DNA of 15,180 nt, taken from the UHGV virus genome UHGV-0058267. The stretch is one strand, 5' to 3'. This DNA comes from a virus. The notes below the pieces were generated by a model. That model saw nothing but the letters and a program-made list of their open reading frames with translations. It did no database searches and was not told the origin of the DNA. The translations under genes and the position numbers were made by a program. Shown here piece after piece: positions 1,523 through 14,170 of the stretch; the first letter of the stretch is position 1; the number at the start of each line of letters is the position of its first letter.

Positions 1523-2376
1523 GCACCATCCTGAAATGGGCGGGAAATAAAACGGCCATTATGGCAGAACTGAAAAAATACCTTCCTGCTGGCCCGCGAC
1601 TGGTTGAACCTTTCGCGGGTTCCTGTGCTGTGATGATGGAGACGGATTACCCCAGCTATTTGGTTGCGGATATTAATCCTGATTTAATCAACCTCTATAA
1701 AAAGGTTGCCGCTGATTGTGAATCGTTTATATCTCGCGCCAGAGTTTTATTTGAGAACGCAAACAGGGAGATGGCTTATTACAACATAAGGCAGGAGTTT
1801 AATTACTCAACTGAAATTACTGATTTCATGAAAGCAGTATATTTCCTGTATCTCAATCGTCACGGTTACCGTGGTTTATGTCGCTATAACAAGAGCGGGC
1901 ATTTCAACATTCCCTACGGTAATTATAAAAATCCGTATTTCCCTGAAAAAGAAATTCGTGCATTTGCAGAAAAAGCCCAGCGGGCAACATTTATCTGCGC
2001 CAGCTTCGATGAAACGCTGGCAATGTTGCACGCGGGAGATGTGGTGTATTGCGATCCGCCGTATGACGGTACGTTTTCCGGCTATCACACTGATGGTTTC
2101 ACTGAAGATGACCAGTATCACCTGGCATCCGTTCTTGAACATCGGTCATCAGAAGGACATCCAGTCATTGTTTCTAACAGTGACACATCCCTGATCCGTT
2201 CGCTGTATCGCAATTTTACTCACCACTATATCAAGGTAAAACGCAGCATCGGTGTGGCAGCTGGCGAGGGTAAATCAGCAACAGAAATCATTGCTGTTTC
2301 CGGGCCGTGCTGCTGGATGGGATTTGATTATTCGCGTGGCGTGGATAGTTCTGCCGTGTACGGAGTACGTGTATGA
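1519..2376 (+). CDS. dam: Dam-type DNA N6-adenine methyltransferase (orphan; no partner endonuclease visible)
   Basis: Starts [11 protein letters not shown]. Carries the AdoMet motif EPFAGSCAV and the catalytic DPPY motif ([10 protein letters not shown]). ATG at 1519 overlaps the TraR stop (ATGA). The upstream extension to 1459 lies inside the TraR gene and is discounted. Confidence 0.9.
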
Positions 2377-4787
2377 GTCATGACGATATGAGCAACTCTA
2401 GCGGCTTTAACGAGGCCGCTGCAGCATTTTCATGGAACGGCCCGAAAAAGGCCATTAACCCTTATCTGGACCCGGCGGAAGTTGCGCCGGAGTCTGCACT
2501 TTCAAACCTGATCACTCTGTACGCTGCCGATAATGAGCAGGAACAGCTGCGCCGCGATGCACTGAGTGAGCAGGTCTGGGAGCGTTATTTCTTTAATGAA
2601 TCTCGTGATCCTGTCCAGCGCGAAATGGAGCAGGATAAGCTCATTAGCCGGGCAAAGCTGGCGCATGAACAGCAGCGTTTTAACCCGGACATGGTCATTC
2701 TGGCGGACGTCAGCGCCCAGCCCACCCATATTAGCAAGCAGCTGATGCAACGTATCGAATACTTCAGCAGCCTGGGCAGGCCAAAGGCTTATTCCCGCTA
2801 TTTGCGTGAGACGATTAAGCCATGTCTGGAGCGACTGGATTGTGTACGTGACAGTCAGCTGTCTGCTTCTTTCCGTTTTATGGCAAGCCATCAAGGGATG
2901 GAGGGCCTGCTGATCCTGCCTGAAATGAGTCAGGATCAGGTGAAACGCCTGTCCACCCTGGTAGCTGCGCATATGAGCATGTGCCTTGATGCAGCTTGTG
3001 GCGATTTGTATGCCACCGATGACGTTAAGCCAGAAGAAATCCGCAAGACATGGGAAAAGGTGGCGGCGGAAACCCTGCGTCTGGATGTCATCCCACCTGC
3101 GTTTGAGCAACTCCGTCGGAAAAGAAACCGCCGTAAACCCGTGCCCTATGAACTCATTCCGGGTTCGCTGGCGCGTATGTTGTGCGCCGACTGGTGGTAT
3201 CGGAAATTATGGAAGATGCGTTGCGAATGGCGGGAAGAGCAGTTGCGTGCTGTCTGCCTGGTCAGCAAAAAAGCATCTCCCTATGTCAGCTATGAAGCCG
3301 TGATGCATAAACGTGAGCAGCGCCGTAAGTCGCTGGAGTTTTTCCGTTCTCATGAACTGGTGAACGAAGACGGCGACACGCTGGACATGGAGGATGTGGT
3401 AAACGCCAGCAGCAGCAACCCTGCGCATCGCCGCAATGAGATGATGGCCTGTGTTAAAGGTCTGGAGCTTATCGCGGAAATGCGCGGTGACTGCGCCGTT
3501 TTCTACACTATCACCTGTCCGTCACGTTTCCATTCCACGCTCAACAACGGCAGACCCAACCCGACCTGGACAAATGCGACGGTAAGACAAAGCAGCGATT
3601 ATCTGGTCGGCATGTTTGCTGCATTTCGTAAGGCAATGCACAAAACCGGGTTGCGCTGGTATGGCGTGCGGGTGGCTGAGCCGCACCATGACGGTACTGT
3701 GCACTGGCATCTCATGTGCTTCATGCGTAAAAAAGACCGCCGCGCCATCACTGCATTACTGCGTAAGTTTGCCATCCGTGTAGACCGCGAGGAGCTGGGC
3801 AACAACACGGGGCCACGCTTTAAGTCTGAGCTGATTAACCCGCGCAAAGGAACACCGACAAGCTACATCGCGAAATACATCAGTAAGAACATTGACGGGC
3901 GTGGTCTGGCTGGCGAGATCAGCAAGGAAACGGGTAAATCCCTGCGTGATAACGCCGAATACGTTAATGCCTGGGCGTCTCTGCATCGTGTTCAGCAGTT
4001 CCGCTTCTTTGGTATTCCGGGACGTCAGGCTTACCGTGAACTTCGCTTGCTGGCTGGTCAGGCGGCAAGGCAACAGGGTGACAAAAAAGCAGGTGCGCCG
4101 ATACTGGATGACCCGCGCCTTGATGCCATCCTGGCTGCTGCTGATGCTGGTTGTTTTGCCACCTACATCATGAAGCAGGGCGGCGTACTGGTTCCCCGTA
4201 AATATCACCTTATCAGAACCGCTTATGAAATCAACGAAGAGCCGACCGCCTATGGCGATCACGGCATTCGTATTTATGGCATCTGGTCACCCATTGCAGA
4301 GGGCAAGATCTGCACTCATGCAGTGAAGTGGAAAATGGTTCGTAAGGCCGTTGACGTTCAGGAGGCGGTAGCCGACCAGGGCGCTTGCGCCCCTTGGACT
4401 CGTGGCAATAACTGTCCCCTTGCTGAAAATTTGAACCAACAGGAGAAAGATAAATCAGCAGATGGGGACCCCAGAACGGATATTATCAGCATGGATGACA
4501 AGGAGTTGCACGATTTCCTGCACAGTATGAGCAAAAAAGAGCGCCGGGAACTGGCAGAAAGGCTTCGCCTGGTTAAACCGATACGGCGTAAAGACTACAA
4601 ACAGCGAATTACAGACCATCAGCGACTGCAGCTCGTCTATGAGCTGAAGTCCAGAGGATTTGATGGTAGCGAGAAAGAGGTCGATTTACTCCTTCGCGGC
4701 GGCAGTATTCCGTCAGGAGCAGGCCTGCGTATCTTCTATCGGAACCAGCGTTTGCGGGAAGATGATAAGTGGCGGAACCTGTATTAA
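2373..4787 (+). CDS. A: P2 gpA-type replication initiation endonuclease (HUH rolling-circle nickase)
   Basis: 804 aa. HUH-type metal motif in [17 protein letters not shown], and paired catalytic tyrosines in [10 protein letters not shown] (the YxxxY of gpA). The start overlaps the dam stop (ATGA at 2373-2376). Confidence 0.95.
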
Positions 4788-4879
4788 TTACGCGGGTTAA
4801 CAATTCGTGCTCTAAATAATACCCGGTATATCAGGCTGATGAACGTAAAAAAACGTTTTACATCAGTAAGATTATTGTA

Positions 4880-4914
4880 TACTGTGAATATAAACAGTGG
4901 TTATATATACAGTA
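4880..4914. promoter_or_regulatory. LexA (SOS) operator: one near-consensus box plus an overlapping degenerate second box
   Basis: 4880-4899 reads TACTGTGAATATAAACAGTG, i.e. CTG-N10-CAG with an AT-rich spacer, against the consensus TACTG(TA)5CAGTA. 4895-4914 reads CAGTGGTTATATATACAGTA, i.e. GTG-N10-CAG with one mismatch in the CTG arm. Both lie 27-60 nt upstream of the ATG at 4941. Confidence 0.65.
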
Positions 4915-4940
4915 TTGCGTGTGGTGTCATAGGAGGAAAA

Positions 4941-5129
4941 ATGCAGGACTATTTTTTGGAGTCTTTGAAGCTCCAGCGCATTGATTTTTTTCTTAAGCTT
5001 GTCGCGGCTAGTGAGTGTAGTGATGAAGAGAAGGGGCTGGCTCTGCAGTGGGTTTCTGAATTGACTGATGAACTCATGGCAAAAATCAGAACTCACGAAT
5101 ACAACCGCTCAATGGATGTCATCAGTTGA
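4941..5129 (+). CDS. Small SOS-controlled protein of unknown function; possible antirepressor-type partner of the DinI-like gene
   Basis: 62 aa. ATG at 4941 is preceded by AGGAGGAAAA. The longer track ORF from 4839 would start upstream of the LexA boxes and promoter region, so it is discounted. Confidence 0.5.
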   Translation: MQDYFLESLKLQRIDFFLKLVAASECSDEEKGLALQWVSELTDELMAKIRTHEYNRSMDVIS

Positions 5130-5139
5130 GGTGACTTTT

Positions 5140-5373
5140 ATGCGCATTGAAATAATGATCGATAAAGAGCAGAAGATTAGCCAGTCTACCCTGGACGCCC
5201 TTGAATCCGAGCTTTACCGCAATCTGCGCCCCCTGTATCCCAAAACGGTAATTCGTATCCGAAAAGGTAGCTCTAACGGTGTGGAACTGACCGGACTGCA
5301 ACTGGACGAAGAAAGAAAACAAGTGATGAAAATTATGCAGAAGGTGTGGGAAGACGACAGCTGGCTGCATTAA
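5140..5373 (+). CDS. DinI-family protein (P2 orf91 / 186 SOS-operon type)
   Basis: 77 aa. MRIEIMIDKEQKISQSTLDALESELYRNL...WEDDSWLH has the length, N-terminal MR(I/V)E pattern and acidic Trp-containing C-terminus of DinI. RBS TGAGGTGA at 5127-5134. Confidence 0.85.
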   Translation: MRIEIMIDKEQKISQSTLDALESELYRNLRPLYPKTVIRIRKGSSNGVELTGLQLDEERKQVMKIMQKVWEDDSWLH

Positions 5374-5462
5374 GAAACGTTGCTGGCATCAGTACTTGAT
5401 TCTGAAGCCAGCAAGGTTGAACAACGAGCAGGGCGAGGCGTTAGTGTTATCATCAAAGAATT

Positions 5463-6020
5463 TCACATAAACATCTGGATTTGCTCGTTTTTTAGTTGGT
5501 TGATTTTTTCGCGCAATCTGATCTTTTCATCAGCTTTTTCCAAAGAGGCTGGTGACATGCAGTTAATCAAAGCGTCAAGGTGCTCTGGAGATTTGATAAT
5601 AAAGAACTTTTTGTATTTATTAACAAAAACGACAGAGCATTTTTTACGTTTAAGAAGCTCAATCACGTTACTCAGAGTACCCGTGCTCTTCGTATCCCAA
5701 ACCATTAATCCATAATCGGCTTCTTCTGCCATTTTGAGATCTTTCGCAGTGAAAAACGCGCGAGTGCCGGCTGCATGGCTAGTACTTACTACATGTACAG
5801 GCCATGAGCCAAGATTATTGCGCGGTTTTTCTGAGCTACTGAATACTGTGGCTTTTTCACATCCAAGTTCTAGCAATACGCGTTGAACAGATGAATCAAC
5901 ACCATTGGCATCACCAACTACAATACGAAAACGCGAGTTAACAATTTTTTTCAGACGATCCACGATGAGTGTGTCAAGGTTTTTGATGGTTATTGAACCA
6001 GCAACAAATACCGTAGTCAT
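5463..6020 (-). CDS. DprA/Smf-like (SLOG Rossmann-fold) protein; ShosA-like component
   Basis: Contains VFVAGS...RIVVGDANGVDSSVQ, the GxAxGxD nucleotide-binding signature of DprA/SLOG domains, and a C-terminal coiled-coil tail. ATG at 6020 lies 5 nt after GGAGATAG. The track start at 6032 is a TTG inside the upstream gene. The gene starts 2 nt after the PRTase stop. Confidence 0.7.
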   Translation of the reverse strand: MTTVFVAGSITIKNLDTLIVDRLKKIVNSRFRIVVGDANGVDSSVQRVLLELGCEKATVFSSSEKPRNNLGSWPVHVVSTSHAAGTRAFFTAKDLKMAEEADYGLMVWDTKSTGTLSNVIELLKRKKCSVVFVNKYKKFFIIKSPEHLDALINCMSPASLEKADEKIRLREKINQLKNEQIQMFM

Positions 6021-6022
6021 CA

Positions 6023-6604
6023 CTATCTCCAAGTCAAAGCTGCAACATAAATGCTTCTAACCTTAGTATAATCGTTTAGCACAGCACAAGCAGCCTCCAT
6101 AGATGCGCCTGTATGGTAGAGGTCGTCAATGATAAGGACATTCCAGTTGCCATTATTCTCAATACTGTCATTAACAGAGAACGAATTACCCAGCGCCGTG
6201 ATTTTCTCTTCTTTTGTATTCAGGTTCTTTAGCGAAGCCCCGCCGGGGGCTTTCAACAAGAGGTCATCGAAGCATGGTTTGCCAACTAGTTTGGCTAGTT
6301 CCTGAGCTATTTCGGTCACTGGCTGGCGTGCACGCTGATTAGATGCAGCCATTGGAACGATAAACCCGACATTGCTGAAATGAGGAAAGGCATGCTCTGC
6401 TAGGCATTGGGCTAAAGGCTTAACTTGTGACCAATCGTCACGGTATTTAAGCTGGAAAAGAGATTCGCCTACCTCAGTACGCTCAGTCTCAAACCGCATA
6501 TGTCCCCACTCATCGTAACCAATGGGAATGCTGCGGATGCTGTGTTTATCCATCGCAAGACCTAATTCCCAATTTCCAACAATCTGTTTTATGTTGACTT
6601 TCAT
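6023..6604 (-). CDS. ComF/GntX-like type I phosphoribosyltransferase; ShosT-like component
   Basis: PRPP-binding loop VLIIDDLYHTGASM (aa 156-169, acidic pair D160-D161). 193 aa. It is the first gene of a two-gene minus-strand operon. Confidence 0.8.
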   Translation of the reverse strand: MKVNIKQIVGNWELGLAMDKHSIRSIPIGYDEWGHMRFETERTEVGESLFQLKYRDDWSQVKPLAQCLAEHAFPHFSNVGFIVPMAASNQRARQPVTEIAQELAKLVGKPCFDDLLLKAPGGASLKNLNTKEEKITALGNSFSVNDSIENNGNWNVLIIDDLYHTGASMEAACAVLNDYTKVRSIYVAALTWR

Positions 6605-6875
6605 GGCTCACCGTTTGCTGTGTAAAACACCAAAGACTACCTCTTGTTATATTTGGTGAAAGCGAAAGTTTCATTTTTTGCAGTGGAGATCAAATGTTAC
6701 TCCGTGAACATTTTTAGCATGTGGCCTCGCTACACGGTTTGGCGTAACTACTGCATGTCTATACTGCATGAATCCGCATGATCGTTTAAGGATCGCTCTA
6801 GTTGGGGCCTGCTAGGTATGGCGGGCTTTTGCTTATGTCATGCAGGTGCATGAAAACCACTATATAAAGCGGGCA

Positions 6876-6894
6876 GGCGTGGCGGGGATACGAT
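6876..6894. other. Candidate cos cohesive-end sequence (186-like)
   Basis: GGCGTGGCGGGGATACGAT compared with the 186 cohesive end as I remember it, GGCGTGGCGGGGAAAGCAT: 16 of 19 identical, including the first 13. It lies between gene A and the portal gene, where P2-family cos sits. Confidence 0.55.
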
Positions 6895-6951
6895 TGCGCT
6901 CGCATCCTTTTCGTATTAATCTGATATCAATTTAAAACGAAGAGTTCGCAA

Positions 6952-8055
6952 ATGAAAATTATTTCAATATTTAATAATAAAGGTGGTGTAGGAAAATCCA
7001 CTCTTGGATACCATACTGCGCATGCATTGGCAGAGAAAGGTATTAAAACTTTAATGATTGACCTTGATCCACAGTCGAATCTCACTTTACAGTGTATTTC
7101 TCCTGAGGAGTTAGAAAAGTTATGGCTAGAAGAAGAGCCATTTATTGAGGACTTCCAATCAGCTTTAGAGGAAAGTAAACTTTCGTATCAAGATTTTTTG
7201 AGTAAGCCGAGAAGCATTCATTGCTTATTAAAACCAATAGAAGATGGCGTCTACGAATCTTCTTCACTAAGTTCTGTTTATGAGCTTAATGATAAATTAG
7301 GTATTATTCCAGGTCGTTTAAGTTTGCATAAATATGAGGATAAAATCGCGAAGGGTTGGAGTGATGCCTTCATGGGAGAACCTCAAGCACTGCGACTTAT
7401 TACCAGTATTAGGAACTTATGTCTAGAAGCAGAGGAAAAATTTGGTTATGAAATGGTAATAATAGACACATCTCCTAGTCTCGGTATGCTTAACAGAGTT
7501 ATCATTTCTACATCAACCGGATTTTTTGTCCCATGCATGCCCGATATGTTCTCCACCTTTGGGATTACTAACATAGGAGAGTCATTAAAGAATTGGAAAA
7601 ATCAGTTCGATACCATGTATAAACTTTTGCCTGATAAAAAGAGAAATGTTTTCCCTAAAAACTTCGTTAAGTTTTTAGGTTATACTATTTATAACGCGAA
7701 GAAATATGAAGGCAGAAATGAACTTGATTTAGCGACCGCGCATTACTCATATGTTCAGAAAATTCCCAATGTGATCAAAAAACACATTCCTCAAGAATGT
7801 TATCAAGAGCAAGATCTTGCAGACATTTCACAACCAATTGGTGGAAAATCAGTTATTCACTCGCATAATACTCTTCCTTCTATGTCTCAAAAGTATAGGG
7901 TGCCCATATGGAAAGTTCCTTTCATCCAATCCATGAGCGCAGAAGACAGAGCCACTGTTTCAGGTAATAGACAGACTTTTCTTGACAAGCAGCAGGCATA
8001 TAGTGATTTTGCCGATTCTCTTTTGGCTCGTATTGATAAGATTGGAGAAGAATAG
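6952..8055 (+). CDS. ParA/MinD-family (deviant Walker A) ATPase with a large acidic insertion and a C-terminal extension
   Basis: MKIISIFNNKGGVGKST carries the KGGxGK[ST] motif with signature K10 and K15. Walker A' is LMIDLDPQ and Walker B is YEMVIIDTSPS (D172). At 367 aa it is about 100 aa longer than a minimal ParA. The DNA is very AT-rich. Confidence 0.85.
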   Translation: MKIISIFNNKGGVGKSTLGYHTAHALAEKGIKTLMIDLDPQSNLTLQCISPEELEKLWLEEEPFIEDFQSALEESKLSYQDFLSKPRSIHCLLKPIEDGVYESSSLSSVYELNDKLGIIPGRLSLHKYEDKIAKGWSDAFMGEPQALRLITSIRNLCLEAEEKFGYEMVIIDTSPSLGMLNRVIISTSTGFFVPCMPDMFSTFGITNIGESLKNWKNQFDTMYKLLPDKKRNVFPKNFVKFLGYTIYNAKKYEGRNELDLATAHYSYVQKIPNVIKKHIPQECYQEQDLADISQPIGGKSVIHSHNTLPSMSQKYRVPIWKVPFIQSMSAEDRATVSGNRQTFLDKQQAYSDFADSLLARIDKIGEE

Positions 8056-8057
8056 TT

Positions 8058-8735
8058 ATGGCTCTTAAAGAAAAATATGCGGACATTTATAGGCGTCTTA
8101 AAGATGAGATCGATGCCTATGAATATTTCATGAAGAATATTAAAAATTTTTTCGAGTCAACTAAAGTAAAAGCTCATGTCCATTCACTTCGTTTTAGGTT
8201 GAAAGATATTGATCATCTTTTAGAGAAAATAGAAAGAAAAAACCATGAGGATGATCAGTTACCTGAAGCAGAGCGAAAAGGTCATATCACAGCTGAAAAT
8301 ATTTTTAACCGTATAACGGATATAGCTGGAATAAGAGTATTACACCTTCATTTAAGTCAAATGGAAGATATACATCGTGCAATTATGAGGGCAGTAGATG
8401 AAGGGGAGTATGCGCTTTTTGAAGAGCCAAAGGCATATACTTGGGATCCTGAGTCCAAAGTTTATTTTGAGAGTTTGGGTCTTAAGCCTCATGTAAAACA
8501 AAGTTTTTATACGAGCATTCATTATGTCCTGAAACCTAATAGAGAAGGGAGTGTTACTTGTTGTGAAGTTCAAGTCAGAACTCTTCTTGAGGAGGTTTGG
8601 GGGGAAATTGATCATACAATGAATTATCCTATCCAGCATGTCGATGAGAACTGCAAAGAACAGATAAAAATTCTTGCTAGACTGATTGGCGCTGGAAGTC
8701 ATTTAGCTGATTCAATTATGAAACGCTATCAATGA
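8058..8735 (+). CDS. Small RelA/SpoT-homologue synthetase-domain protein (toxSAS-like nucleotide pyrophosphokinase)
   Basis: All core SAS motifs are present: R47-L-K49-x9-K (FRLKDIDHLLEKIERK), TD88IAGIR, Y151TSIH155 and E170VQVRTLLEEVWGEIDH. 225 aa with no hydrolase or regulatory domains. The start lies 2 nt after the ATPase stop, with GGAGAAG upstream. Confidence 0.85.
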   Translation: MALKEKYADIYRRLKDEIDAYEYFMKNIKNFFESTKVKAHVHSLRFRLKDIDHLLEKIERKNHEDDQLPEAERKGHITAENIFNRITDIAGIRVLHLHLSQMEDIHRAIMRAVDEGEYALFEEPKAYTWDPESKVYFESLGLKPHVKQSFYTSIHYVLKPNREGSVTCCEVQVRTLLEEVWGEIDHTMNYPIQHVDENCKEQIKILARLIGAGSHLADSIMKRYQ

Positions 8736-8766: not shown

Positions 8767-9141
8767 TTAAATAAGTTTGTAGTCTTCAAAGTTTATTATC
8801 GGCTCATCTAACCATTTGTTAATCTCCTCAATTCTCTTTTGAAGAGGTTTAAGTTCGTTCCTAACAAAAACCATACTAGCCTTCTCCACATCCCCAAACC
8901 CCCCAACATTATTAGGCATAATCCCCATCATTTGCGGCGGCACGCGGTGCGCAGCCATCATGTCATCGCGGCTGACATTTTTGATATTCAGAAACTCATC
9001 CTTCGCCGCCACCTCTGACAACGGGATAATCTGAAGCCCGTCCTTTTTGCCGTTAGGCGAGTACATAAATAGGTTGCGGAAGTTACCCAGGGCGGCGGAG
9101 CGATGAGTTCTAACGGGATCGTGGTTGATGCGCATCAGCAT
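8767..9141 (-). pseudogene. Q: 3' fragment (about 124 codons) of the portal gene Q; the N-terminal two thirds are deleted
   Basis: ...SRDDMMAAHRVPPQMMGIMPNNVGGFGDVEKASMVFVRNELKPLQKRIEEINKWL... matches the conserved C-terminal region of P2 gpQ / PBSX-family portals, which are about 340 aa in P2 from memory. Upstream of 9141 the DNA encodes V/W on the other strand. Confidence 0.8.
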
Positions 9142-11035: not shown

Positions 11036-12774
11036 GCACAAAATTTTATACCCTGCTGACGGAGATTGGTGCGGCGAAGCTTGCCAGCGCCACTGCACTT
11101 GGTGTGCCGCTTAAAATTACCCATATGGCGGTGGGGGATGGCGGCGGAGCATTGCCGACGCCGGACGCAAAGCAGACTGCACTGGTAAATGAGAAACGCC
11201 GGGCTGCGCTGAATATGCTTTATATCGACCCGCAGAACAGCAGCCAGATTATTGCCGAACAGGTGATCCCTGAAAACGAGGGCGGTTGGTGGATACGTGA
11301 AGTGGGCCTGTTTGATGAGTCAGGGGCATTGATTGCCGTGGGCAACTGCCCGGAAAGCTATAAGCCGCAACTGGCTGAAGGCAGCGGGCGCACCCAGACC
11401 GTGCGTATAGTGCTGATAACCAGCTGCACGGACAATATCACCCTGAAAATCGATCCTGCCGTCGTGCTGGCAACCCGCAAGTATGTGGATGACAAGGCAC
11501 TGGAGCTGAAGGTGTATGTGGATGATCTGATGGCAAAACACCTTGCCGCACCAGATCCGCATTCACAGTACGCGCCAAAAGCCAGCCCGACATTTACCGG
11601 AACCCCCAAAGCGCCAACGCCAGCGGCAGGGAATAATACCACGCAGGTTGCGACCACCGCGTTTGTACAGGCGGCACTGACGGCTCTTATTAATGGTGCG
11701 CCAGCCACGCTGGACACACTGAAAGAAATAGCCGCAGCCATTAACAATGACCCGAAATTCAGCACCACCATTAACAATGCGCTGGCACTGAAAGCGCCGC
11801 TGTCGAGTCCGGCACTTACCGGAACGCCAACAGCACCTACTGCGGCACAGTCGGTCAACAATACACAGATTGCCACCACGGCTTTTGTGAAATCGGCGAT
11901 TGCAGCAATGGTGGGTTCTGCACCTGCGGCACTGGATACACTGAACGAACTGGCGGCGGCGCTGGGGAATGACCCGAACTTTGCCACGACAATGCTTAAT
12001 GCACTGGCAGGTAAACAACCGCTGGACAATACGCTGACTAATTTGAGTGGAAAGGATGTAGCTGGTCTTCTCACATACCTTGGTTTGGGAGAAGCCAGAT
12101 TCTCTGGTCGTTTGTTAAACACGAATATTTTTAAAAGCTCTGGAAAATATATCCCAACACCAGGGACAAAAAAGATAAGGGTCATTGCCTCTGGTGGCGG
12201 TGGCGGCGGCGGTGGGGTTCCTGAAACAACAGAAAATCAGCAGGCAACAGCCGGAGCTGGATTGAGCGGCGCATTTATTGAAGCATTTTTCGAGGTTGAT
12301 AATGATTTCGAAGTCAACGTTATTATCGGTGCTGCAGGTAAAGGGGGGGGAGCCGGAGGAAATTCAGGTAGTGAAGGTGGCACAACTTATTTCGGTTCCA
12401 TGATAACTGCACCAGGTGGTACAGGCGGTGGCGCGGGGGGAGCATCTGCAAACACATCATATATTCAGGGTATTTCATGGGGTGCCAGTCCGACATCGTC
12501 CGGTACAGTACTAAGAGCATTTCGCTGTAGTGCAAAAACACCAGGAGCAATGGTTATCTCTGTTAAAGCTGTAGCAGGTGGTACCGGGGGGGATACACCA
12601 TTAGGTTCAGGCGGTATAGGTGGTGCAAGTTCTTCATCATTCAGCGGACGTGGTGGTGGTAAAGCTGAGGGCTTTGGTGCTGGCGGAGGCGGAGCCTGCG
12701 CACCTGCTGGAAGTGAGGCTCAATCGGGAGGTGACGGTGCCCCGGGAATAGTTATTGTTGAGGAGTATGCCTGA
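11032..12774 (+). CDS. H: Tail fibre protein gpH. The conserved N-terminal and shaft part is currently joined to a glycine-rich C-terminal domain encoded inside the invertible segment.
   Basis: The N-terminus MSTKFYTLLTEIGAAKLA...WWIREVGLFDESGALIAVGN is P2 H-like. It is followed by two fibre repeats. After the crossover site comes ...YIPTPGTKKIRVIASGGGGGGGG...GGDGAPGIVIVEEYA*, a typical glycine-rich fibre-tip domain. Confidence 0.9.
   Translation: MSTKFYTLLTEIGAAKLASATALGVPLKITHMAVGDGGGALPTPDAKQTALVNEKRRAALNMLYIDPQNSSQIIAEQVIPENEGGWWIREVGLFDESGALIAVGNCPESYKPQLAEGSGRTQTVRIVLITSCTDNITLKIDPAVVLATRKYVDDKALELKVYVDDLMAKHLAAPDPHSQYAPKASPTFTGTPKAPTPAAGNNTTQVATTAFVQAALTALINGAPATLDTLKEIAAAINNDPKFSTTINNALALKAPLSSPALTGTPTAPTAAQSVNNTQIATTAFVKSAIAAMVGSAPAALDTLNELAAALGNDPNFATTMLNALAGKQPLDNTLTNLSGKDVAGLLTYLGLGEARFSGRLLNTNIFKSSGKYIPTPGTKKIRVIASGGGGGGGGVPETTENQQATAGAGLSGAFIEAFFEVDNDFEVNVIIGAAGKGGGAGGNSGSEGGTTYFGSMITAPGGTGGGAGGASANTSYIQGISWGASPTSSGTVLRAFRCSAKTPGAMVISVKAVAGGTGGDTPLGSGGIGGASSSSFSGRGGGKAEGFGAGGGGACAPAGSEAQSGGDGAPGIVIVEEYA
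11584..12024 (+). repeat. Two tandem ~73-aa tail-fibre shaft repeats within H
   Basis: Repeat 1 (11584-11802): SPTFTGTPKAPTPAAGNNTTQVATTAFVQAAL..APATLDTLKEIAAAINNDPKFSTTINNALALKAPL. Repeat 2 (11803-12024): SSPALTGTPTAPTAAQSVNNTQIATTAFVKSAI..APAALDTLNELAAALGNDPNFATTMLNALAGKQPL. Confidence 0.85.
12068..12093. promoter_or_regulatory. Left recombination site (hix/gix/cix type) for the serine invertase, inside H
   Basis: TTCTCACATACC-TT-GGTTTGGGAGAA: two 12-bp half-sites around a 2-bp TT core, matching the TTnTCnnAAACC half-site pattern of Hin/Gin/Cin sites. 12080-12100 is a perfect 21-bp inverted repeat of 13516-13536. Confidence 0.85.
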
Positions 12775-13040
12775 TGAGTAATTTTGCTCTGATTGAACAT
12801 GGCGTGGTGAAAAATATTATTATCTGGGATGGAGAGGGTGATTTATTCTCTAATTGCGAAATTATAAATATTGATCATATAGATGCAGGCGTCGGTTGGT
12901 TCTATTCTGACGGAGAGTTTATAGCACCACCGGAACCGGAAATGACTGAATATGATGTTGGTAACATCGACGCGGTGATGGAAGCAGATACCAGCACCGC
13001 GCCGGGGGTTATCTGGCCAGTTCCACCTGAGATGGTTTAA
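12774..13040 (+). CDS. Small protein downstream of the active fibre tip; putative fibre chaperone or assembly factor
   Basis: 88 aa. The ATG overlaps the H stop (TGATG at 12772-12776). MSNFALIEHGVVKNIIIWDG... resembles small ORFs that I recall following glycine-rich fibre genes. No catalytic motif. Confidence 0.5.
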   Translation: MSNFALIEHGVVKNIIIWDGEGDLFSNCEIINIDHIDAGVGWFYSDGEFIAPPEPEMTEYDVGNIDAVMEADTSTAPGVIWPVPPEMV

Positions 13041-13206
13041 TCTCAATCAGAATGGGTTCGCCATTCTCGTTAACAGATATTTCCATTCCTTCAGGGATTT
13101 CAGATGCAGTAAAAAACCAGTTATCTTCTGGTAATTCCACAGCCCCGGTCACGTCATGAAGACCGGGGATTACTTCAGTCAAAGTAACAGGATTAAACAG
13201 GCGCAC
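13009..13206 (-). CDS. Alternative small fibre accessory gene, silent in the present orientation
   Basis: GTG at 13206 lies 7 nt after GGAGAG (minus strand ...cctGGAGAGtttattGTGcgc) and overlaps the stop of the silent fibre cassette by 14 nt. This gives MRLFNPVTLTEV..., 65 aa. The track start at 13296 would overlap the cassette by 104 nt. Confidence 0.4.
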   Translation of the reverse strand: MRLFNPVTLTEVIPGLHDVTGAVELPEDNWFFTASEIPEGMEISVNENGEPILIEIKPSQVELAR

Positions 13207-13548
13207 AATAAACTCTCCAGGAAAAAGCACTTGTTGATGGTCTTCCGTCGTACATCTGGCAGCGGACATAAAAACCTGTATTACTGACCTGGTCATCCAC
13301 GATCATTGAAACGTGAACGTTATTAGGTGTGGCCTCGTAATCTGTTCTTATTCTTTCCGCTATGCTGATAAAACGTGAAAGCTTAGGTAGTGCAATTGGA
13401 TAAACGACTTTAGCCAGCCCATTATCATTGGAACCACCAGTTCCAAATACTTCTATTGCACCATCTGACCAGCGTATCCATGCACCATTGACATTAGCTC
13501 CTCGCTGAATGACATATCTGGCTTCTCCCAAACCAACGTTTAAGAAAA
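13193..13548 (-). CDS. Silent, promoterless alternative tail-fibre C-terminal cassette (gp53-like tip), expressed only after inversion
   Basis: The minus-strand frame reads ...NVGLGEARYVIQRGANVNGAWIRWSDGAIEVFGTGGSNDNGLAKVVYPIALP...RVYCAPV*. GLGEAR is encoded by the shared inverted repeat, so inversion fuses it in frame to H (...TYLGLGEAR). The upstream MMPVSRNLCIF of the track ORF lies outside the segment and is fortuitous. Confidence 0.75.
13523..13548. promoter_or_regulatory. Right recombination site (hix/gix/cix type)
   Basis: TTCTCCCAAACC-AA-CGTTTAAGAAAA. The inner half-site is the exact reverse complement of the inner half of the left site, and the core AA opposes TT on the left, giving an inverted orientation. 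Confidence 0.85.
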
Positions 13549-13603
13549 TGCAGAGATTACGGCTAACTGGCATCATCTCCGGTTTTTATTCAGGGGGATG
13601 ATC

Positions 13604-14170
13604 ATGCTTATTGGCTATGTACGCGTGTCAACAAATGACCAGAACACCGATTTGCAACGTAATGCACTGAACTGCGCGGGATGTGAGCGGATTTTTGAGG
13701 ACAAAATCAGTGGCACTAAGTCCGACAGACCGGGGCTGAAAAAACTGCTCAGGACACTATCGGCAGGAGACACGCTGGTTGTCTGGAAGCTGGACCGGTT
13801 GGGGCGCAGTATGCGGCATCTTGTTACGCTGATAGAAGAGTTGCGCCAGCGTGGCGTGAATTTCCGAAGCCTGACTGACAGTATTGATACCAGTACCCCA
13901 ATGGGCCGTTTCTTTTTTCATGTCATGGGTGCCCTGGCTGAAATGGAACGCGAACTGATAGTTGAACGTACCAGGGCAGGGCTGGCTGCAGCTCGTGTTA
14001 AAGGCAGAGTAGGTGGACGCCGTCCTAAGTTGACCAGCGAACAGTGGGCACAGATTGGGCGTTTACTCGAGGCCGGAGAATCAAGACAGCGTATTGCACT
14101 GATTTTTGATGTAGGCGTTTCTACCATTTATCGAAAATTTCTGGCAAATAAGAGCAATGAATCTCCCTGA
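13604..14170 (+). CDS. Hin/Gin/Cin/Pin-family serine DNA invertase
   Basis: MLIGYVRVSTNDQNTDLQRNAL... (catalytic Ser in VRVST) followed by ...LVVWKLDRLGRSMRHL...FFFHVMGALAEMERELIVERT... and a C-terminal HTH (VSTIYRKF). ATG at 13604 lies 6 nt after AGGGGG. The track start at 13598 abuts the RBS. Confidence 0.92.
   Translation: MLIGYVRVSTNDQNTDLQRNALNCAGCERIFEDKISGTKSDRPGLKKLLRTLSAGDTLVVWKLDRLGRSMRHLVTLIEELRQRGVNFRSLTDSIDTSTPMGRFFFHVMGALAEMERELIVERTRAGLAAARVKGRVGGRRPKLTSEQWAQIGRLLEAGESRQRIALIFDVGVSTIYRKFLANKSNESP

Follow-up and report, generated by a model that had tools for sequence, protein, structure and literature searches.

In coliphage 186, the LexA-repressed promoter p95 drives tum, whose product sequesters the prophage repressor CI reversibly (PMC7708051); inhibition of CI has been shown for 186 Tum (work cited in PMC7708051 and PMC3121763). 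Some relatives carry tum in two pieces: a passage in Lemire et al. (PMC3121763), citing Bunny et al. 2002, describes the tum of Fels-2 and PSP3 as split by a stop codon, and the antirepressor activity of PSP3 lies in the upstream gene (PMC3121763). In DuoHS, the prophage of Escherichia coli HS, a 189-bp 'hypothetical protein' gene between gene A and a DinI-like gene (ECHS_RS04495) has been named tum; its in-frame deletion abolishes mitomycin-C-induced lysis and virion formation, and lexA(Ind-) likewise abolishes mitomycin-C induction (PMC12055606). Here we compare with these systems a LexA-boxed pair of open reading frames (ORF1 and ORF2) at positions 4880-5373 of the virus genome UHGV-0058267, within a stretch of 15,180 nucleotides (nt) that we call the window. 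An initial annotation, made from the letters alone, had proposed that the pair could be a split or modular version of an SOS-triggered antirepressor. Profile links to Tum, the tumA and tumB genes of PSP3 and the HS deletion bear this proposal out, and show the arrangement to have been known already. We are highly confident that the pair, in the split form tumA-tumB, makes up the SOS-induction operon of a Fels-2/186-type P2-like prophage; this form has been experimentally characterised in a near-identical copy.

The elements of the unit, together with the gene that precedes it, are as follows (aa, amino acids; RBS, ribosome-binding site).

2373-4787, + strand: gene A, replication endonuclease, 804 aa (ORF list; RefSeq annotation of E. 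coli CFSAN061762)
4857-4862, + strand: putative -35 element TTTACA of the tumA promoter, the p95 equivalent, placed by analogy with 186 p95
4880-4885, + strand: putative -10 element TACTGT, inside box 1, placed after 186 p95, whose -10 is the TACTGT of the LexA site
4880-4899, + strand: SOS (LexA) box 1, TACTGTGAATATAAACAGTG, an exact CTGT-N8-ACAG and the best LexA-like site in the window
4895-4914, + strand: SOS box 2, CAGTGGTTATATATACAGTA, the second-best LexA-like site in the window, forming a colicin-type double operator
4931-4936, + strand: RBS of tumA, AGGAGG, read directly from the sequence
4941-5129, + strand: tumA (ORF1), predicted 62-aa antirepressor homologous to the N-terminal part of 186 Tum (translation, homology, profile links)
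5128-5133, + strand: RBS of tumB, GAGGTG, read directly and overlapping the tumA stop codon TGA (5127-5129)
5140-5373, + strand: tumB (ORF2), 77-aa DinI-family protein, homologue of the C-terminal half of 186 Tum and of PSP3 TumB (Pfam, alignment)

Place among described tum operons

The window is part of a 186/Fels-2-type prophage, a member of the P2 family (Peduoviridae) that sits in E. coli. With gene A ending at 4787 and tumA beginning at 4941, the unit lies directly downstream of gene A, and this order of gene A followed by tum is common to 186, PSP3, Fels-2, DuoHS and the Yersinia and Cronobacter phages. In 186, too, p95-tum adjoins the 3' end of gene A and the LexA site overlaps the -10 element; the tumA boxes occupy the position of that annotated site over p95, and the PSP3 site is homologous as well. 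With gene A upstream and the p95 LexA site matched, the suggestion that the unit lies at the map position of the LexA-repressed 186 promoter proved sound. The two systems differ in that 186 has a single LexA box, one fused tum frame of 146 aa and then orf97, which is absent from the window, whereas here the halves are set apart by a stop codon and a 10-nt spacer that contains an RBS of its own, and two boxes overlap. The halves sum to 62 + 77 = 139 aa, close to the 146 aa of 186 Tum as the initial annotation had reckoned. An internal GTG start in 186 also makes the DinI-like part separately, and this product, the equivalent of TumB, is annotated as modulating induction.

The split relatives are closer in organisation and, with one exception, in sequence. 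The Salmonella prophage Fels-2 (STM2728/STM2726.1) shares the split and the double box, with a TumA 98.4% identical to that of the window and a tumB that differs by synonymous changes only; STM2726.1 is a DinI-family gene next to STM2728, and its record compares it to PSP3 TumB. DuoHS has the double SOS box, a TumA identical at 61 of 62 residues (the sole difference being T51S) and an identical TumB (ECHS_RS04500; both are RefSeq WP_001217575.1), and it shares the attachment region rcdA/ybjL with the related prophage of CFSAN061762 and with sister contigs of the window; it differs in being complete, inducible and infectious, with other hotspot cargo and another CI type. PSP3 is likewise split, its GenBank record annotating tumA as 'similar to 5' end 186 tum; UV induction of prophage' and tumB as 'similar to dinI and 3' end of 186 tum', but its TumA is highly divergent and it has a single LexA box. 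The gfoA, gftA and gfhA operons of Gifsy-1, -2 and -3 also place a DinI homologue and a small antirepressor, directed against a non-cleavable repressor, behind a LexA-boxed promoter; there dinI comes first and the antirepressors and repressors are of unrelated lambdoid families, making the likeness one of organisation.

The region is widespread and little changed. Positions 4700-5600 are 100% identical to E. coli CFSAN061762, whose prophage is 98% identical and whose gene A product RefSeq calls 'replication endonuclease', and related copies of the same interval occur in 1125 of 5426 complete E. coli genomes. In tumA-tumB the window is 100% identical to copies in intact prophages, and phages of Klebsiella, Salmonella, Escherichia and Yersinia also have related copies of the tum region. 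Right after the tumB stop codon the similarity to Fels-2 and E. coli HS comes to an end.

TumA and TumB as the two halves of Tum

Assignment of ORF2 is straightforward. As the initial annotation had read it, the 62-aa frame is followed 10 nt later by a DinI-family gene: ORF2 matches Pfam DinI (PF06183) over profile positions 1-63 with E = 6.6e-23 and 81.3 bits, against a cutoff of 24.2 bits. Its score against the NCBIfam DinI equivalog model (42.7 bits) falls under the cutoff of 111, and ORF2 is therefore a DinI-like paralogue rather than the chromosomal DinI. Residues 87-145 of 186 Tum themselves form a DinI domain (Pfam E = 1.8e-17), in line with the DinI similarity that the initial annotation had given for Tum, and ORF2 aligns to Tum residues 71-145 at 41% identity (E = 3e-24).

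The proposed alignment of both frames to 186 Tum thus succeeded for ORF2; for ORF1 a pairwise BLASTP comparison with Tum returned no alignment, so that profile methods were needed for that link, and these did recover it. Searched against PHROG, ORF1 and the Tum N-terminus hit the same three families with the ranking reversed: ORF1 matches phrog_698 (3.6e-38), phrog_8554 (2.4e-8) and phrog_1993 (2e-3), and Tum matches phrog_1993 (1.4e-22), phrog_8554 (1.4e-11) and phrog_698 (2.7e-5). A hidden Markov model of the ORF1 family scores 24.5 bits on 186 Tum and 34.6 bits on a Yersinia 'tum protein', whereas none of 508 decoys exceeds 12 bits, and hhalign places ORF1 residues 2-44 on Tum residues 2-44, colinear and ungapped, with 94.2% probability (E = 1.1e-7). 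An alignment of six sequences has the core [LI]-[QE]-R-[IV]...C...[LIV]-A-L-x-[WL]-[IVL]-x-[ED]-[LIM]. On these three independent profile comparisons ORF1 is homologous to the N-terminal 44 residues of 186 Tum, within its non-DinI part. The hhalign match and the 98.4% identity to Fels-2 STM2728 also speak against the possibility, raised at the outset, that the 62-aa frame is unconserved and unlike the Tum N-terminus.

Codon differences tell the same for both genes. Synonymous to nonsynonymous counts are 5:1, 2:1 and 3:2 for ORF1 and 5:0, 3:0 and 5:0 for ORF2, in which all differences from Fels-2 and HS are synonymous; judged by these counts, both frames are under purifying selection. ORF1 is 100% identical in 39 phage records, and its family, clustered at 50% identity, comprises 66 representatives, nearly all of them stand-alone proteins of 50-100 aa. 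No Pfam or NCBIfam model covers it, and in RefSeq and most phage records the protein goes by 'hypothetical protein' or is misnamed 'levan regulatory protein'. Many entries are 84-101 aa long, because annotation took as start an earlier ATG (4839 here), one that precedes the promoter and operator. We considered that start for ORF1, which would give 96 aa, and rejected it: the extension crosses the operator and the RBS, and the family alignment begins M-Q/R-D. AlphaFold predicts for TumA a two-helix hairpin (helices 2-22 and 28-61; predicted local distance difference test score, pLDDT, 89.4). A Foldseek search of PDB with this model returned generic helical hairpins alone (best E ~1), and a sequence search of PDB with TumA found no relative.

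Between the two genes, the 10-nt gap contains the GAGGTG of tumB. A hairpin at 5118-5135 (GTCATC...GGTGAC) spans the tumA stop codon and the tumB RBS and was flagged as terminator-like by a scan; it is not more stable than in shuffled sequences (z = -0.65), and we do not claim translational coupling through it. On the 3' side of tumB, between it and a convergent 189-aa gene, lies an 8-bp inverted repeat, TTGCTGGC...GCCAGCAA, at 5380-5414, with a 19-nt loop and no clear T-run.

A double LexA operator of colicin type

Upstream of tumA, the near-consensus SOS box and the overlapping second box that the initial annotation had picked out are indeed present at 4880-4899 and 4895-4914, followed by the strong RBS AGGAGG at 4931-4936. 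Box 2 is offset from box 1 by 15 nt and shares 5 nt with it; its right half is perfect and its left half degenerate (GTGG for CTGT). Box 1 is the sole exact CTGT-N8-ACAG in the 15.2-kilobase (kb) window, where 0.15 would be expected per shuffle, and 30 of 200 shuffles contained at least one, a count that by itself is weakly significant; it is placement and conservation, rather than the number of boxes, that make the LexA boxes solid. Scored on either strand, boxes 1 and 2 are the two best LexA sites in the window (4.95-8.97, the next best being 10.7) by an approximate heterology matrix rebuilt from E. coli boxes. Because this matrix does not reproduce published heterology index (HI) values (recA 4.77 against 4.31, umuDC 0.58 against 2.77), we used it solely to rank sites within the window. 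The 35-nt double-box pattern is kept at the equivalent position in CFSAN061762, Fels-2 and E. coli HS.

The putative promoter reads TTTACA-17 nt-TACTGT, beside the annotated TTCACA-18-TACTGT of 186 p95; an alternative -10, TATACT at 4878-4883, would leave a 15-nt spacer. At the level of sequence, tumA has the putative promoter of its own, overlapped by a LexA box, that goes with Tum/TumA antirepressors.

The overlapping second box has a precise precedent outside phages. A plasmid search with the 96-nt upstream region matched 4874-4920 to hundreds of small Col plasmids (83-86% identity over 43-47 nt), at sites that precede colicin D and pore-forming colicin genes by about 40 nt. Aligned column for column with three colicin promoters, the tumA operator has the same double overlapping box, CTGT-N8-(A/C)CAGTGGTTATATATACAGTAT, in which two 20-nt boxes at a 15-nt offset have the CAGT(G) of box 1 in common; the genes that follow are unrelated, and the tumA -35 element lies about 8 nt closer to the boxes. 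At colicin genes, double SOS operators are bound by two LexA dimers, simultaneously or cooperatively, and keep basal expression very low (PMC2994835). In 186, in PSP3 and at the distant TumA loci there is one LexA box each, and by analogy with the colicins we infer that the Fels-2-type double operator would lock more tightly than 186 p95.

Third among the LexA-like sites of the window, with 10.7 on our approximate scale, comes TACTGCATGTCTATACTGCA at 6749-6768, which is intergenic between the divergent phosphoribosyltransferase-like and ParA-like genes. It has no CTG...CAG symmetry and may be an unrelated operator.

Proposed route of induction in a prophage without head and lysis genes

The organisation of the operon suggests how it would work. 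In an undamaged cell, LexA dimers on the two overlapping boxes would cover the -10 element and the transcript start and keep the promoter shut. On DNA damage, active RecA would prompt LexA self-cleavage and the operon would be transcribed, as the genetics of DuoHS lexA(Ind-) and of 186 p95 lead one to expect. TumA would then bind the prophage CI stoichiometrically and keep it off its operators, derepressing the early lytic promoter; that the window TumA binds CI and is required for induction would follow from the binding by 186 Tum and the requirement for the HS orthologue. TumB, co-expressed, would be predicted from its membership of the DinI family to bind RecA filaments, probably modulating their activity and the strength or duration of the SOS signal rather than inducing the prophage.

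Several observations weigh against this account and should be set beside it. For the allele in the window we infer both the binding of LexA and that of TumA to CI, and the CI gene itself lies outside the window, being seen only in sister contigs (L021 and L022). A general-purpose scan for promoters detected no sigma-70 site upstream of tumA on the + strand. Besides the empty BLASTP comparison with 186 Tum, PSP3 TumA is only 14% identical to ORF1, with an hhalign probability of 6.8%, though the two are in register. As to the role given to TumB, deletions of the Gifsy dinI homologues had no significant effect on induction (PMC3121763).

The unit is ordinary apart from its location, a prophage without head and lysis genes. 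The absence of lysis and head genes that the initial annotation had remarked on reflects an 8.6-kb deletion at 9082-9088, which fuses the portal gene to gene V across a 7-nt overlap or microhomology and, relative to an intact relative, removes the terminase, capsid, holin, lysozyme and spanin genes. A second deletion, with its junction at about 15092, fuses the tail sheath gene to the tape-measure gene. With the head, lysis and part of the tail genes lost, the SOS switch is intact, yet no phage release can follow from it. The first junction occurs in none of the complete E. coli genomes of the collection, and an exact search for it in one-genome-per-species contigs gave no match; it was located through the truncated portal protein, which is on record in 61 assembly blocks. 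Sister contigs (L021, L022 and L023), 99.3-99.7% identical to the window, share the first junction; in them the erosion of late genes has gone progressively further, while CI, apl, cII, gene A, tumA-tumB and the cargo are still intact. The cargo comprises candidate defence or toxin modules, as judged from sequence.

5463-8735, both strands: variable cargo at the P2 hotspot position, between tumB and the portal remnant
within 5463-8735, - strand: 189-aa protein with no family hit
within 5463-8735, - strand: 193-aa ShosT/PsyrT-like phosphoribosyltransferase (PADLOC E = 1e-8)
within 5463-8735, + strand: ParA-like AAA_31 ATPase, 367 aa
within 5463-8735, + strand: RelA/SpoT-domain protein, 225 aa

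The division of labour between the two genes could in principle be the reverse of the one we favour, with the DinI-like ORF2 as the inducing factor and ORF1 an unrelated small frame or leader peptide. Only ORF2 has a Pfam or named family match, databases calling ORF1 hypothetical, but this reading is already contradicted and we regard it as extremely improbable: the gene whose in-frame deletion abolished induction in HS, ECHS_RS04495, is the orthologue of ORF1, the PSP3 antirepressor activity is in the upstream gene (PMC3121763), and ORF1 is the part homologous to the Tum N-terminus. Moreover, Yersinia phage vB_YenM_06.16-2, Cronobacter phage ESSI-2 and Escherichia phage ESSI2_ev040 have more distant TumA homologues after gene A (loci L008 777-959, L009 ~790-990 and L010 753-1013), with a consensus LexA box directly upstream and no DinI-like gene. 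The existence of such loci makes the DinI part an optional add-on to the antirepressor. A different question is what an SOS-induction operon would do in a grounded prophage, and the initial annotation had imagined that SOS-triggered derepression would lead to gpA-driven replication without particle release, possibly amplifying the neighbouring defence genes. Spelled out, the intact LexA-TumA switch would have been co-opted, and replication, in situ or after excision, would raise the copy number and expression of the cargo. The deletions that remove head and lysis genes are real, the sister contigs lose still more late genes while keeping CI, apl, cII, gene A, tumA-tumB and the cargo, and the latter resembles defence or toxin modules (the ShosT/PsyrT-like phosphoribosyltransferase; the ParA-like ATPase and RelA/SpoT protein). 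Retention of the early region could, however, reflect recent deletion, and selection is not separable from time, because tumA-tumB is 100% identical to copies in intact prophages. On general knowledge of 186 and P2, derepression would also be expected to harm the cell, through Fil-like and other early functions and through rolling-circle initiation on an unexcised prophage, and we consider amplification of the cargo quite unlikely.

The relation of TumA to CI bears on another possible role, in trans. Phages with identical TumA have CI proteins whose overall identity is no more than 36-59%; measured against the CFSAN061762 CI (L001 14324-14893; the comparison also took in L011-L019), these same proteins are 69-78% identical in the N-terminal DNA-binding domain and 25-40% in the C-terminal domain. 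Across 11 phages, in non-independent pairs, TumA identity follows that of the CI N-terminal domain (Spearman 0.88) and not that of the C-terminal domain (0.14). Since identical TumA proteins pair with CIs that share the N-terminal domain alone, the pattern suggests that TumA may contact that domain, although shared early-region ancestry with swapped CI C-terminal domains would give the same correlation. The CI of the window's lineage (L021 19764-20375, and L022) and that of Klebsiella phage Kp4872-2 have two tandem copies of the N-terminal domain. From these patterns it could be argued that the main role left to the TumA of the defective prophage is in trans, as a LexA-controlled inducer of co-resident P2-like prophages with a related CI N-terminal domain, and trans-acting antirepressors are documented in Salmonella, in the crosstalk between Gifsy and Fels-1 (PMC3121763). 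The correlation is nevertheless open to the ancestral explanation just given, its pairs being non-independent, and the source genome is not known to carry a second P2-like prophage; we hold such a role to be unlikely. A broader speculation, to which we likewise give little weight, is that a near-invariant TumA serves P2-like prophages, whose CIs differ strongly in the C-terminal oligomerisation domain, as a common key acting through the CI N-terminal domain, a grounded prophage that preserves its double-locked LexA-TumA switch, CI, gene A and cargo as late genes erode being retained either as a trans inducer of related co-residents or as an SOS amplifier of defence cargo.

Elsewhere in the window, a segment of about 280 nt at 371-652, between the fil-like and DUF5347 genes, is unlike the CFSAN061762 prophage, matches the sister contigs and holds a 74-aa ORF (406-630). 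The tail-fibre region at 12774-14170 contains short opposed ORFs and a 190-aa serine recombinase (13598-14170), and resembles invertible host-range segments of the Gin/Cin type.

As a finding, the SOS-induction operon of the window adds little, the split operon having been described for PSP3 and Fels-2 and the near-identical HS gene having been shown genetically to be the LexA-controlled trigger. Its value is in part one of annotation: the 62-aa gene is labelled hypothetical and is without a family model, yet the region occurs in about one-fifth of complete E. coli genomes. Beyond this, two minor points, the colicin-like double LexA operator and the suggested connection of TumA with the CI N-terminal domain, could help specialists concerned with induction thresholds and with P2-like prophages that induce one another.

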